A stretch of 64,000 bases of DNA from Okamejei kenojei. Its lineage: Eukaryota. The notes below the pieces were generated by a model. The model did no database searches. It was not told the DNA's origin and worked only from the letters and a program-made list of their open reading frames with translations. The stretch is taken from positions 17,670,001 through 17,734,000 of the forward strand of contig CM069142.1 in NCBI GenBank assembly GCA_035221665.1, in the 5' to 3' direction. The stretch's first letter is position 1. The number at the start of each line of letters is the position of its first letter. Shown here one piece after another: positions 43,953-63,777 of this stretch. A program made the translations under genes and the position numbers.

Positions 43953-44451
43953 TGGGCCTGTCCCACTTGGCGATTTTTCAGGCGACTGCCGGTGACTGTC
44001 AAGTTGCCGGCAGTCACCTGAAAAACCGGCAACTGGAACGACAACTGTCAGACACATTTTTTTTCTCTCGCTCTCTCGCTCGCTCGCTCTCTCGCTCTCT
44101 CTCTCGCTCGGTTCTGAAAACTACGGCTTTTTTTTCCCAACGAGCCAATGAAATTCACCGGTCAGCATAGCTACAAGTTACGAGAACCTTTGATCTCCTG
44201 GCGACCCACCTACGGCACGAGAATTCTCGCTACTTTCCATGGCGGCTTCATTCTAGTCGGCGCTAATTTTTCAACATGTTGAAAAATTAGCTGCAACCAT
44301 AATGAGGCTGCGACTAGTTCCCAGAATGCGGGAACTCCTCTCGACCATGAAGACGACTCCCCGGCAACTACCCGCGAACATGTGGCGACCATGTGGCGAT
44401 TGCGTAGTCTCCTGCAGTCGCCTAAAAAGTCGCATAAGTGGGACAGGCCCA
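43953..44451. mobile_element. MITE, PIF/Harbinger-like
   Basis: TIRs tgggcctgtcccactt.gcga.ttttt.aggcgactgc / gcagtcgcctaaaaagtcgcataagtgggacaggccca; flanks taa/tta. Confidence 0.88.
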
Positions 44452-56676: not shown

Positions 56677-57371
56677 TAAATAAGTTGAGTGTGATTGTAA
56701 TTAATACAAGATTCAATACCAGGTTTAATTCTCTTGGATGTTACAAAACTTATTTTGACAGCACAATAATCAGAATCCAAAATCTACCAATTTAATGTAT
56801 TTCTAAGAGCATGACGATAACAGAACCACTGCTGGTTCCCGTCCAAATCACACCGCCTACTGAGCGGGAAATATATCACAGGTTCTTCGTCAATGTTAGG
56901 TCCAAGTCTTGGAACTCCCTACCCAACAGCATTGGTGGTACCTTCACCAAGCTGACTGCTCGGGTTCAAGGGGGTGACTTAACACTACCATCCTCATATT
57001 AGTTAGAGATAGTCAGTGACCCAACAGCTTGATTGTCTTTTCCATATATGACATTGAAGGATCTTGTTAAATTATTTGAGCGATACAAGTCACGTGTTGT
57101 ATATATTTTGTCTTATGAACTAGTCTTGCGGAAACTCCGCCTCGTAGGAATATAACAAATGAAATAAAAATTAGGTCACTCTTTTTAGATTTTCAGATAG
57201 AGTTGCAATGGGAGAGCGCATCTCCCTACAGGGAGTACTTTGGATCATTACTTGTATTTATCATGGTTCTATCCAGTCTGAGTCCATTAGCATTAACAAC
57301 AAAAGTCCACACTGGTATAAATTTGCCATTCCTTGTCGTTGTTATAATGTGGAGCATTTGCAGCCTGATCT

Positions 57372-57650
57372 AGATCAGGGCAGAAATTGTCACAGTTACC
57401 GACACTACTCCCTTGAAATCTCAAAATAAGATCAAGAAGATTTTGCACCATAGCTGTAACATTGGAGGGTATTATCTGTATAATATCCCAGAGAGGTATA
57501 AGCCAATGCAGTTTTGTACAGCAATCTTCCATGGCGGGTATGTAATGATAACCTATAATGTATTTTCACCTGCCAATAGCAATTTCTGCAATAGAAATGA
57601 TGATTGAATACTTTGTGCCTCTGCTGAATTTAGATGACTTTGTTAGGGGA
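57372..57650 (+). repeat. Putative donor arm of a 279-bp inverted duplication (partner 61817-62095)
   Basis: 9 substitutions and no gaps over 279 bp by manual comparison. Confidence 0.95.
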
Positions 57651-58077
57651 GCTAACATTATGGTGTAATTTTCCAGGTTTTTTCTTATAACCTTTTAAAA
57701 CCTTTAAGTAATTCTCTTGCGCCTATTTTATACTCCATTCAATTGTACTCCATTCAAGTGTAATGCTGATGACTTTTAGAGGGAAAAAAATTCATATATT
57801 GAAAAGTTAAAAATCTATATAGAATTTTTCACTTTTTTCACAATATTTCTAACGTACGTGACTCGAGCAAGATACATGTATTGTTCATTTCCCATCTCCC
57901 TGACAAGGTAATGCGGGCATATTCTTTGACCATTGAAGCCCCGTTAAGTTTGTGATCCCACAGTGATGCGAGGAACACGTTTCAAATCATTTACCATTTA
58001 GATAAATATAATCCATTATAAACGATTATATCTTATATAAACGATTATTTATCTTATAAAAGATAAATATAATCCTA

Positions 58078-59225
58078 TTACAAACTTAAAGCATACGGTA
58101 TTAGGGGTTCAGTATTGATGTGGATAGAGAACTGGCTGGCAAACAGGAAGCAAAGAGTAGGAGTAAACGGGTCCTTTTCACAATGGCAGGCAGTAACTAG
58201 TGGGGTACCGCAGGGCTCAGTGCTGGGACCCCAGCTATTTACAATATATATTAATGATCTGGATGAGGGAATTGAAGGCAATATCTCCAAGTTTGCGGAT
58301 GACACTAAGCTGGGGGGCAGTGTTCGCTGTGAGGAGGATGCTAGGAGACTGTAAGGTGACTTGGATAGGCTGGGTGAGTGGGCAAATGTTTGGCAGATGC
58401 AGTATAATGTGGATAAATGTGAGGTTATCCACTTTGGTGGCAAAAACAGGAAAGCAGACTATTATTTAAATGGTGGCCGATTAGGAAAAGGGGAGATGCA
58501 GCGAGACCTGGGTGTCATGGTACACCAGTCATTGAAAGTAGGCATGCAGGTGCAGCAGGCAGTGAAAAAAGCGAATGGTATGTTAGCTTTCATAGCAAAA
58601 GGATTTGAGTACAGGAGCAGGGAGGTTCTACTTCAGTTGTACAGGGTCTTGGTGAGACCACACCTGGAGTATTGCGTACAGTTTTGGTCTCCAAATCTGA
58701 GGAAGGACATTATTGCCATAGAGGGAGTGCAGAGAAGGTTCACCAGACTGATTCCTGGGATGTCAGGACTGTCTTATGAAGAAAGACTGGATAGACTCGG
58801 TTTATACTCTCTGGAATTTAGGAGATTGAGAGGGGATCTTATAGAAACTTACAAAATTCTTAAGGGGTTGGACAGGCTAGATGCAGGAAGATTGTTCCCG
58901 ATGTTGGGGAAGTCCAGGACAAGGGGTCACAGCTTAAGGATAAAGGGGAAATCCTTTAAGAACGAGATGAGAAAGACTTTTTTCACACAGAGAGTGGTGA
59001 GTCTCTGGAACTCTCTGCCACAGAGGGTAGTTGAGGCCAGTTCATTGGCTATATTTAAGAGTGAGTTGGATGTGGCCCTTGTGGCTAAGGGGATCAGAGG
59101 GTATGGAGAGAAGGCAGGTACGGGATACTGAGTTGGATGATCAGCCATGATCATATTGAATGGCGGTGCAGGCTCGAAGGGCTGAATGGCCTACTCCTGC
59201 ACCTAATTTCTATGTTTCTATGTTT
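58078..59225 (+). mobile_element. Young CR1 LINE 3' ~1.15 kb; RT reading frame broken by a single stop at 58352
   Basis: [24 protein letters not shown]...[11 protein letters not shown], then the 256-aa ORF 58361-59131 in the same frame; (ctatgttt)n tail. Confidence 0.97.
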
Positions 59226-59372
59226 AATCCCATGTCTTGGACGAATGTTGAATTGATGGAATTTGTCTTCACTCGTGCACAAACCTTTAGTGAAGGTACC
59301 AGAGTGAGCAAACCAATTCCATCCAGGTTAATGCAACAACATTTTGGAAGCTGAGGACTATGTGTAATTTGT

Positions 59373-59500
59373 AAGAAGGAGCTGCAGATGCTGGTTTAAA
59401 CCGAAGATAGGCACAAAAAGCTGGGGTAAGTCAGCGGGACAGGCAGCATCTCTGGAGAGAAGGAATGGGTGATGTTTCCAGTTGAGACCCTTCTTCAGAC
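59373..59500 (-). mobile_element. PLE terminal-repeat fragment
   Basis: gaaggagctgcagatgctgg...gagacccttcttcagac. Confidence 0.82.
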
Positions 59501-60444
59501 GTGTAATTGTCTGAGTTTAGATACTTGCAATGTTAGGATGAATTTCTTCCCCATGAGTGCCATTATTTATCTGCAATAATGATAAAGCAAATCACATTGC
59601 TGATTCTTCATTTACGAGATTCTTTTTGCGTTTGAGGTCTGTAACTGTGAACAACAGTCAAAACCTCAAACTTATTTGTTTTAGTTTCTATAGTTATTTA
59701 CAATAGCGGGGGTGAGATTTATTCGAGTGAAATTAGGACTTTTGCCTCATTAACAGAAAGGGTAGTGAATTCTATTTTTTATGTTCCGCTAGAAGCTGCT
59801 GCAATCTGCATTTGAAATAAACTTTCTGTGGCTCTTTAGAAAATTAATCACAGCACGTGACCCGTTGTTCAAGTCGAAGCTCTTTAAAAGTGGACTTCAG
59901 TTCCTTGCCTCGTTTTGTCCATTACTCTTTCCCAACTCATAAATCTGAATACGTGGACTCAAGTATATGCCAATTTTTCAAAACTTTCAGAGATATTCTT
60001 TCATAAGCCTTTGAAGGGTTGTACTTTGAACCTATGTAGTGAGATAGGCACGGGTGGGAATCCACCCACACTTTGCTCTTGGTTTATTGTGTTTGAAAGA
60101 CATGAATCTTAATGAGCAGGGCAAGAGGAAATGGGCAACATTAGCTTTGTTGTGTGAAAGTTGCTGCACAAATTGTAACAAAGACAGTTTTTTACATCCA
60201 GAGCAGAATACCTAAGATTAAGGGAAGTTGAAGTGATTATAATTTTCTGCATACGTTTGATCTTGAGAGAATGCTGATGCGAGGCTGGATTTTTTCACCC
60301 TAATGGGTTGGGGTGATGCTGGTAAGCTTGCTTTCTTTGTTCCTACGGATGGGAAAGGAAGAAAATAAATGATCATCCTAATGAGACACATGGATTGTGG
60401 TGATTGATTCATATGTGGAATTCATGAGTCGCGTAGTTGCACTG

Positions 60445-60670
60445 CGTAGAAACAGGTTATTTGTATTTGGCCAACTGTGTTCATGTTGACCTTCTTGTTC
60501 AATAACATTAAGCCATTTACCTGCATTAGGACTTTGTCCTCAATGCTTTGCCTATTTAGCTGTTTGTCGAAAAACCTTTTAAGCAAAGTAATTGTGTGTG
60601 ATTCCACCATCCCATCTGGCAATTTGTTCCAGTTGTCCAACACTCTTTGTGTTCCTTCCCCACACCTGAG
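60445..60670 (-). mobile_element. Old CR1 3' end
   Basis: TQRVLDNWNKLPDGMVESHTITLLKRFFDK. Confidence 0.65.
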
Positions 60671-61524
60671 GTCTATGCCCTCTTGTATTACATGGGCCCT
60701 TACCATGCAGAAATAGATTTTGGCTATGATATGTGTGCCTTTCAAGTCCGTAAATACTTCTATCAAGATGTTGTTTACTTGGGAAGGTTTTTTGATCTTC
60801 GTCCAGACAGTGATGAGAGAATTCAGACATGCCTAAAGGAAGGTGGTGTTCTCCCAATATTACGGATTGTTGTCTTTGGTGCAGAGAAGCAGTCTTGATG
60901 AGATGGTGTCACGTTTCCTGCGGATTGGACCCCTGAACTGTTGTGTGTTCGCTGATTAAATACAGAGATACTGAGGACATGAGCCGGGACGCTTATCTGG
61001 CAAACATTTTCTTCCTTGCTGGTGTTGAGTTAAATCGCTGGTTCGTACTTTTGCTGAACTGGGGCTACCCCTATAAGCGTCGACTATGCTCTCCGTATAT
61101 CCGCATGCTTGCAGTTCCTTGGACTGGACAGTCATTCCACACTTGCTGGCCCTCTGACATTTGGGATGGGTAGGGACTCTTGTGCAATGTGTTGTCCTGC
61201 AGAGCTTCTGCCCGAGTGGCAGAGCACAAAGCTGAGGGTGGAGCTTTCACCTCTCACAAAGCTATTATTGAATTCATTTTTTGAAATGGCGAGATATAGA
61301 GCGGGAGGTAGAAATCTTTATACTGAAGTAAATTCTGAAAAGAAATATTGACGGGAAGGACAAAATCAAAATCAATACTAGGGGTGTGCATTGTTTTCTA
61401 CATTAAGCTGAAACAGGATAGTTTTTCTAAAATAAATCTCATCCTTTACTTAGTTGTATGCTCTTGAAATGTATTTACTTCACTCCAACTCCACCCACCT
61501 CCTGCAACTTAAACCCTGGAATAG

Positions 61525-61816
61525 AAACATACAAACATAGAAAATAGGTGCAGGAGCAGGCCATTCGGCCCTTCGAGCCTGCACCGCCATTCAATATGAT
61601 CATGGCTGATCATCCAACTCAGTATCCTGTACCTGCCTTCTCTCCATGCCCCCTGATCCCTTTAGCCACAAGGGTCACATCTAACTCCCTCTTAAATATA
61701 GCCAATGAACTGGCCTCAACTACCTTCTGTGGAAGAGAATTCCACAGATTCACCACTCTCTGTGTGAAAAATGTTTTTCTCATCTCGGTCCTAAAAGACT
61801 TCCCCCTTATCCTTAA
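61525..61816 (-). mobile_element. CR1 3' end, 5'-fused to captured local DNA
   Basis: LRIRGKSFRTEMRKTFFTQRVVNLWNSLPQKVVEA; (gaaacata)n tail on the + strand. Confidence 0.93.
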
Positions 61817-62095
61817 TCCCCTAATAAAGTCCTCTAAATTCAGCAGAGGCACAAAGTATTCAATCATCATTTCTATTGCAGAAATTGCTATTGGCAGGTG
61901 AAAATACATTATAGGTTATCATTACATACCCGCCATGGAAGATTGCTGTCCAAAACCGCATTGGCTTATACATCTCTGGGATATTATACAGATAATACCC
62001 TACAATGTTAGAGCTATGGTGCAAAATCATCTTGATCTTATTTTGAGATTTCAAGGGAGTAGTGTCGGTAACTGTGACAATTTTTGCCCTGATCT
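61817..62095 (-). repeat. Inverted copy of 57372-57650
   Basis: Direct reverse-complement match. Confidence 0.95.
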
Positions 62096-63777
62096 GAATA
62101 GGAGTCAGTCGGCTCTAGGAGATTGTTTTTAACAATGAAACATTGATTTATTCTGTTGCATTGTAAACATGACTTAAACTTTCAATTTGTCATTGTGGAA
62201 AATCAAGACAAAATTGGCTGTTTACTTTTAGATGATTGCAATCTCAACAATTTGATCTCCGGTTGGAATTGATGATGCCCAATAAGCTGTGTGCAAAGAA
62301 TTGAGATGATGTGAGCGATAACTATCCAGTAGGCAACCCTGATTTGCCAAGGCTGACACTTAACCTTCCAAGTGAGAGGCGGTGTCTCGTAGTTTGAAAT
62401 TCACAGATGTTCAGGTGAAGCTTTGGAGTTTGTGTGCATCTCTGAATATTTATTTTTTGGAAATTAAAGCTTTCCTTTTTTTTTGCTCTGTGCTGAAACA
62501 GAAGATCCATCGACTGCACTCCAGACATGTCAGAATCCAGGGGAATATAATGGGAAAGGAGGACATTCTAAAACATTTACAGTGACTCTCTGTAACTTCC
62601 CACAGAAAATTAGCTGGTTTTGCGAATGCTCGTGATGGGGAGAACTGGTTAAAACTAAGATCTGCGATCATCCACATCTGTTGCTTGGCCACGTGGATTC
62701 AAGATAGGTATCTGTATTTAGTGTTAACCTGAAACAATGAAGTTCTTCATTTTCTGCCAGCATTTTAGTAACAATTACTGGGACACTATTCCACTCCAGA
62801 GTTTACCTGGACAACACTGGAAATGCTTGGCCGCGTGGGCTAACAGTCCTTTGAGATACTATGAACCAAATGTTTGTCTGCCTTTGTGCCCATGTACATA
62901 ACTAGGCAAGGGTTTTGAGCCATCAACATGATGAACATTTAATCATGTGCAATGTCTCACAAAACTGCACTTTGCTGCTTTCTATGATCAGGAGAACAAC
63001 ATGAACCAGCCTACATGTTGCTCAGCATTTGTTAGCAATGGTAGTCCGATTTATGAAGTACTTCAGGAGACACGACAATTTTAACAGTTGAAGTCAGCTT
63101 TTGCATTTATCAGTAGTGGTATTTGGCTGATAGAGGATTTGCATCACCATTCACAGTGGAGCCATGTACATATAGTGTTTCATTGTTTTTGAGTCTTTGC
63201 TTTGAAGCTGTTGATTTGCGATCTCATGCATGATCTGTGGGGTTTTTATCAACATTATTTCTAGGTATTTTTGTTCTTAAGCTGTGGGCTGAAAATGTCT
63301 GTAATTTTGGTGGGTGTGAATATGTTCTCAATTTGCAGTTTCAATTTCAGCAGCTGTTTTCTATGACTGAGCGCAGTTATTCTATTTCAGCAGTGTTGCT
63401 GTGGCTCTTCCAGTAGTGAATTACCAATGAACCTGCAATATTCAACAAACATTTACCTTCTGGATGTGAGTGCTATTAAAAACAAAATGCACTAAAATAA
63501 TTTGCAGATGTTAAGCGCATTGAGTAAGGTGCAGTAATTCTATTTCAGTGCTGACTTAGTGATAACGTTCACGTCCTTGTTAGTGGTTCGTGGCTTTGAA
63601 ACTCACACAAGGATTTGAGGGGATCAACCGAATGAGACAGGTCAGAGAAGAATTAAACTAAGCCTCCAGAATGAAAGTATATCCTTTGCAGCATAAGTTC
63701 ATTGTGTAATATGATGCTGTATGTATTTTCCTTTGTGGTTTCAATGCATCCTGCTTAGAATCAAAGGATTCGGATTT

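Follow-up and report, generated by a model that had tools for sequence, protein, structure and literature searches.

A composite insertion in a candidate dystrophin intron

The window – the whole 64-kb stretch of DNA analysed here, positions 17,670,001 to 17,734,000 of contig CM069142.1 from Okamejei kenojei – probably lies within the first intron of the dystrophin gene and carries the truncated 3' end of a CR1-type long interspersed nuclear element (LINE), joined at its 5' end to an inverted copy of nearby DNA. The hexamer GAATAG stands on both sides of this composite and is a candidate target-site duplication (TSD). Coordinates are positions in the window unless C12, C18 or an L-numbered stretch is given, and A to E denote the five species compared below. 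The features are:

57364..57379, no strand: perfect 16-bp palindrome with the donor boundary (57371/57372) at its centre; one mismatch in species B
57372..57650, + strand: donor segment, unique non-coding DNA; right flank the same in B, C and E, left flank the same in B (loose contig ends)
58081..59225, + strand: the neighbour, a CR1-type LINE from a much younger subfamily (99-100% identical to 39 other copies), with which the second arm forms its inverted pair
61519..61524, no strand: left candidate TSD copy GAATAG; four of six bases continue the LINE tail repeat, putatively priming microhomology
61525..61816, - strand: 5'-truncated CR1-type LINE 3' end with TTTCTATG tail repeats; 97-98% identical to its nearest copies
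61817..62095, - strand: captured inverted copy of the donor, adjoining the LINE 5' end without microhomology
62096..62101, no strand: right candidate TSD copy GAATAG; swapped-flank null 2/300

The reverse complement of 61817-62095 matches 57372-57650 over 279 nt with nine substitutions and no gaps: the inverted duplication described in the original prediction is borne out base for base. A search of the 2.76-Gb genome (in which very common words were skipped) returned two matches to the 279-mer, these being the two arms, and the objection that the segment is a multicopy repeat therefore fails. Both flanks of the insertion are single-copy in the genome search, and repeat searches around the breakpoints found no older repeats spanning them. 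The donor, a non-LINE genomic segment, is still present besides its copy; the copy meets the LINE 5' end with 0 nt intervening, and the hexamer directly adjoins the arm's other end. Donor and insert are now 4,166 bp apart, a distance that falls to about 3,015 bp if the younger neighbouring LINE is discounted.

The LINE piece (292 nt) comes from the 3' end of an abundant family and is 97-98% identical to 39 other genome copies; a longer member of the family encodes an RVT_1 domain (E 1.4e-20). "CR1" and "HER1-like" are provisional labels for it, RVT_1 being the sole domain shown. The family may belong with HER1 and the shark-ray CR1-clade LINEs, the likeness being that of an abundant, 5'-truncated element lacking long terminal repeats (non-LTR) with an 8-nt tail repeat and a reverse transcriptase (RT) domain. 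The LINE piece and the neighbouring LINE differ at 23 of 292 positions (7.9%, where roughly 10% had been claimed), and the neighbour differs from the majority of the LINE-piece family at 19 of 292. Since the neighbour is 99-100% identical to its other copies, it was inserted after the chimera; the claim that it was not the source stands, and it was rejected as a tether for the cDNA as well. The neighbour has a candidate TSD of its own (TAATCC), and on its 5' side, at 57999-58080, lie short repeats of the local flank, including a 15-nt direct copy of sequence 77 nt away, which are probably short templated 5' filler.

Junctions and candidate target-site duplication

At the truncation point the LINE family reads ...CACAGT followed by TTAAGG, and the donor reads ...GGGGA followed by GCTAAC. 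Because CACAGT (the family before the truncation) and GCTAAC (the donor beyond the copy) are each unlike the other side, the LINE-arm join is blunt; both joins of the insert are free of microhomology and filler alike. Three resemblances were set aside: an AGCT microhomology at the LINE-arm join with the neighbour's subfamily, which needs a 2-nt loss and the wrong subfamily; a likeness of 8/11 between donor end and target site (CCCTG...TAG); and a CTAAC motif just beyond the donor end, the last two being post hoc.

The two hexamers lie where they had been placed, at 61519-61524 and 62096-62101. Four of the six bases (CTAT on the minus strand) also fit the LINE tail repeat, so that the right-hand hexamer alone is independent evidence of a TSD; a CTAT that continues the tail repeat is what would be expected of priming by microhomology. 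Among swapped flank pairs, a match of at least 6 nt beside the 5' end arose in 2 of 300 (about 0.7% by chance). For the family as a whole, 38 of the 39 nearest copies were surveyed over 40 nt from the 5' end (one was dropped, its tail being unparsed): matches of at least 5 nt were present in 17 of 38, against 20.5% in the swapped null (p=0.0007), and matches of at least 6 nt in 6 of 38, against 6.5% (p=0.035). Short TSDs of 5-9 nt and short 5' extras belong to this LINE family, if not universally, and GAATAG appears a good – though unproven – candidate.

The same locus in five species

Eight of 24 contig sets (X1, X6, X7 and X9-X13) were compared, from species A-E, which hold 21-84% of the words searched for; X1 carries the window's own species label, and a join was counted as bridged only if at least 31 letters lay on each side. 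Contigs bridging the arm-to-flank join come from A (X1, reaching 42 nt into the arm), B (X6, 39), C (X9 and X10, 32), D (X12, 116) and E (X13, 175), while X11 reaches 30 letters only and X7 has no bridging contig. The LINE-to-arm join is crossed by one contig alone (X12, species D), with about 25 and 30 letters and hence below the 31-letter rule, and left-flank contigs of A, B, C and D run into the LINE tail for fewer than 31 letters. With the arm-to-flank join present in contigs of five species the objection of misassembly is answered, and a misassembled chimera is very unlikely. Unbroken donor contigs in X1, X10 and X13 were not read as absence, X1 bearing that species label and X11 and X12 – one sample – differing in such breaks. 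In two individuals of species B (X6 and X7) just one copy of 61817-62056 was found, and one X7 contig stops at 62102; the gap may reflect a later deletion of most of the arm, or dropout.

Between donor and insert, 59819-59846 shows about 14 clustered differences from the window that are common to species B, C and D. By hand comparison the outgroup letters are the reverse complement of the window, which points to species A having undergone a micro-inversion of about 25 bp.

Age of the insertion

Changes since copying number four in the inserted arm (1.4%; at 62084, 62029, 61950 and 61825) and five in the donor arm (1.8%; opposite 62011, 62002 and 61972 in A, and opposite 61957 and 61832 in A+B), those at 61825 and 61832 being read from contig mismatch counts and clipped ends. 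All nine fall on the branch of A or of A+B, and a separate set of arm differences (a 9-nt deletion, 61865, 61889 and 61920) is common to C, D and E. Since the A/A+B and C-D-E groups have no arm difference in common, the arms were identical at the species split (<0.6% per lineage). Judged from these sequences, the insertion is older than a split of about 4.4% pairwise divergence.

The LINE piece, for its part, differs at 4 of 292 positions (1.4%) from the majority of its 29 nearest copies, which were picked by similarity and whose members carry 2-8 differences in 280. Within small-number error the LINE piece and the arm copy are thus of one age. Three clocks (the LINE piece, the divergence of the arms, and their identity at the species split) agree, and one event is therefore likely. 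Flank divergence predicts 6.1 changes per arm and 12.1 for both; nine were seen (P=0.23). Gene conversion of the arms, or constraint on them, was rejected, the shortfall not being significant, and decay of the arms looks neutral.

Frequency of local duplications and captures

Self-comparison of 1.264 Mb around the window (pairs of at least 40 bp, at least 85% identity, two-copy) gave 34 two-copy pairs, 23 of them within 15 kb. A high-copy repeat is touched by 7 of these 23 local pairs, such repeats making up 31% of the region, and at least two pairs lie inside an element. Captures, taken as low-copy local matches of at least 20 nt, were sought at the 5' ends of 83 young copies of the family, with about 5 kb on each side covered for 39 and 10 kb for 44. 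Four of the 83 have a local match at the 5' join, of 279 nt (the chimera), 26, 23 and 21 nt, the 21-nt match being a microsatellite TSD; the controls gave 1/83 at 3' ends and 11/249 at arbitrary points. The genome-wide scan of CR1 5' junctions that had been proposed thus yielded, over this sample, no further long local capture, inverted or otherwise (0/82 other young copies, upper bound 3.6%). Local duplication is in itself routine, but a long capture at a 5' end is rare.

Several individual cases deserve mention. A possible second capture (26 nt, direct, 1.8 kb away) lies 12 nt from a CR1 5' join in L166 (C18:20.93 Mb). At C12:17,552,983-17,553,456 (L031) a 130-bp inverted local duplication with 100% identity stands beside a repeat resembling a short interspersed nuclear element (SINE); it is very young and may be polymorphic. 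Local copies at C12:18,043,059-18,043,130 (72 bp) and 17,575,956-17,576,016 (61 bp) seemingly interrupt a CR1 and a SINE, and appear to be classic repair-mediated duplications.

The palindrome at the donor boundary

The donor boundary falls, as the original prediction held, at the centre of the 57364-57379 palindrome, where CCTGATCT meets AGATCAGG. The palindrome CCTGATCTAGATCAGG can be drawn as a hairpin of 6 bp with a 4-nt loop (-3.4 kcal/mol). Palindromes with arms of at least 8 occur at 183 of 1,263,879 positions (1.4e-4 per position), and the chance that either of two donor ends falls exactly on such a centre is about 3e-4. Over the 88 ends of 22 local duplications, at least one such match is expected about 1.3% of the time by chance, or 8.5% of the time with 3 nt of slack; the donor boundary here is the one end of the 88 that has it. 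The coincidence – post hoc and with n=1 – is suggestive, and may be due to chance.

As phrased, the claim that copying "stopped at a hairpin tip" lacks support, given the weak hairpin and the single instance among 88 ends. A polymerase would be expected to stall at the base of the stem and not at its tip; for the boundary to lie at the centre, the tip would have to be cut, either in a snapped-back new strand or in the template. Tentatively, the palindrome might have ended copying through snap-back of the new strand, followed by opening at the tip. Elsewhere in the window, a perfect 30-bp palindrome (44262-44291) lies inside a dispersed repeat family that has internal inverted structure.

Origin of the composite

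The composite is probably the product of one germline insertion, in which a truncated LINE cDNA was lengthened by copying nearby chromosomal DNA, the break closing afterwards; the TSD candidate, the exact abutment of LINE and arm, and the matching ages all argue for a single chimeric event. What had been proposed was a template switch during target-primed reverse transcription, onto local DNA or RNA: the single chimeric insertion with its local copy is upheld, the stop at a hairpin tip is not. If the preferred reading is correct, then the LINE endonuclease would have nicked the site and the target's ATAG end would have primed on the RNA tail, with reverse transcription halting after about 292 nt. 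The free cDNA end would then have turned back to the donor + strand, some 3.0 kb off on the primer side and accessible as resected duplex or as a D-loop, and 279 nt of donor would have been copied leftwards. Blunt joining of the new end to the other, 6-nt staggered end would have given the TSD, and the insertion would have been fixed before the A-E split, with neutral decay thereafter. An inverted donor on the primer side is the outcome that fold-back in cis would produce; resection with self-annealing over 6.3 kb has been proposed (PMC11702581).

A number of observations weigh against this account. Local duplications away from LINE ends are common (the 23 in 1.264 Mb), and short captures are not enriched at CR1 5' ends (3/82 other copies vs 11/249 control points). 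The empty site that was expected in a sister species, with a single GAATAG and one 279-mer, was not found in the eight contig sets: all five species carry the insertion, and TSD and direction of copying are accordingly inferred. No match of even 4 nt is present in 14 of the 38 family copies, most of which are without a clear TSD, and choosing the nearest copies by similarity biases the LINE clock downwards. Microhomology and filler are absent from both junctions, unlike all 39 duplications in Table 1 of PMC2671141, and L1 templated insertions typically copy DNA lying no more than 15 bp from the site, as against kilobases here (bioRxiv 10.1101/2024.08.27.596794). Finally, the sequence reads the same whether the template was DNA or RNA.

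Gene context and inverted pairs

Dystrophin can be followed on the + strand from C12:17,659,849 via L014:2497 to L132, and its candidate 186-kb first intron spans the whole window. Downstream on the + strand lie a CH-domain exon (best match dystrophin, E 2e-27) and spectrin exons; a dystrophin exon reading EREDVQKKTFTKW is 114 kb away. The upstream end of the intron is a 7-nt candidate coding exon with a strong donor site (L041:9849-9855), 10 kb before the window, which, spliced on, would give MED-EREDVQ; it is a candidate for the first exon of brain-type dystrophin. The insertion thus probably lies within dystrophin intron 1, with the template strand being the sense strand. A Pfam search of 131 candidate exons or open reading frames (ORFs) lying up to about 100 kb from the window, among them the C-terminal ORF of the neighbour, gave 0 matches, which is weak evidence of absence. 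Human dystrophin has three full-length promoters (PMC10949565).

The insertion accounts for two of the three inverted pairs of at least 250 bp and at least 90% identity within 10 kb in the 1.264 Mb, including the sole pair above 95%. The two pairs are nested such that both could pair, with computed duplexes of about -485 and -516 kcal/mol. Of the long double-stranded RNA that a double arm had been predicted to form, the geometry is real and locally unusual; its LINE half arose later, with the insertion of the young neighbour.

Alternative explanations

A variant of the same event, possible but unlikely, is that the CR1 RT jumped end-to-end to a 279-nt local intron piece whose 5' end had been made by cutting the hairpin loop; the piece would be either a single-stranded DNA flap or RNA of the dystrophin intron, nascent or in decay. 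Non-LTR RTs are known to jump between templates, and cleaved flaps to be captured (PMC11371274, PMC11702581). Both joins are blunt, the template would be the + strand (sense for dystrophin, which probably spans the site), and a cut in the loop would explain a boundary at the exact centre. However, strands would agree 50% of the time by chance, putative germline transcription of full-length dystrophin is required, and such a palindrome stands at just one duplication end in 88; placement in intron 1, moreover, depends on the 7-nt candidate exon and its match to the expected N-terminus. The fuller version, in which the CR1 RT jumped without homology to a host-intron fragment cut at a hairpin tip and so planted the region's strongest close inverted repeat, is very unlikely.

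A distinctly unlikely alternative separates the event into two steps: insertion of the LINE with its TSD, and soon after a break-repair duplication at (or deleting up to) the LINE 5' boundary. The frequency of local duplications within 15 kb, 7 of 23 touching a high-copy repeat, is in its favor, as is the lack of enrichment of captures at CR1 5' ends. Nevertheless, the second event would have to hit the very point where the LINE 5' end met the hexamer, and within a short time window, the arms being identical at the split and the LINE of like age.

The order of copy, interval and inverted copy also fits an inversion of 57651-61816 by staggered breaks, one of them at the LINE 5' end, which left a 279-mer at either end; the arrangement is common to all five species, the ancestral order is unseen and no older repeat orients the breakpoints. 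Such an inversion is nevertheless highly improbable: it leaves the hexamer match to chance (2/300), calls for a break at precisely the point where the LINE is truncated and does not explain the equal ages. That the inverted arms were kept for pre-mRNA pairing (editing, back-splicing or control of splicing), as their share of the close inverted pairs, their duplex energies and their fixation in five species might suggest, is extremely improbable given divergence at the neutral rate without shared compensation, the loss of 9 nt from one of the copies in C, D and E, a second arm mostly unseen in both contig sets of B (where contigs cannot prove absence) and a LINE partner that is a recent insertion.

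Relation to known systems

The nearest parallel to a single chimeric insertion is the L1 templated insertion (bioRxiv 10.1101/2024.08.27.596794; PMC11702581), in which a chimeric LINE likewise carries a non-LINE genomic duplicate; in L1 the duplicate lies inside one TSD, here inside one candidate TSD. Both are rare, at 22/3,598 for L1 and 0/82 among the other copies here. The template here is 279 bp long and about 3-4 kb off, whereas those of L1 are typically <250 bp and within 15 bp, and the case differs from the L1 set in being CR1-type, germline, fixed across species and blunt at its joins.

Repair-mediated proximal duplications (Pace 2009, PMC2671141) have a median of 147 bp (50-619 bp) and a donor <5 kb away, and all 39 in Table 1 show microhomology and/or filler, 31 of them microhomology. 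The arm resembles these in size and distance, in low copy number, in its intact unique donor and in its origin in a vertebrate germline; unlike them, it stands at a LINE 5' end inside a candidate TSD instead of interrupting an element, and it has no microhomology, filler or visible deletion. Extra 5' nucleotides are also known at LINE inserts, including those of zebrafish ZfL2-2/CR1-2_DR (PMC4245944), and R2 has "snap-back" 5' junctions onto nearby DNA (PMC11371274). In both of these LINE cases, flank-derived DNA lies between LINE 5' end and target; the present segment is far longer than either and comes from kilobases away. The HER1 LINE is named in a table of PMC3747384. A literature search, which left most subscription papers outside its reach, turned up no CR1 5' end with a capture from kilobases away.

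The composite offers a clean, dated germline case of a LINE insertion patched with kilobase-distant DNA, and would carry over to a fish element of CR1 type a pattern that tumours and cell lines have shown for human L1. If captures genome-wide prove to be primer-side, inverted and hairpin-ended, then they would show how the poorly understood 5' joining of a LINE insertion finishes, which one case cannot. The chimera is also a marker shared by five related species.

Other features of the region

Inside the dystrophin gene, at C12:18,010,599-18,013,743 (L080), is a 1.58-kb tandem duplication with 98.8% identity. An ORF fragment with a GDSL-like esterase domain (E 2e-9) is present at L124:8397-8702 and is probably the remnant of a LINE ORF1, with which this domain is associated.

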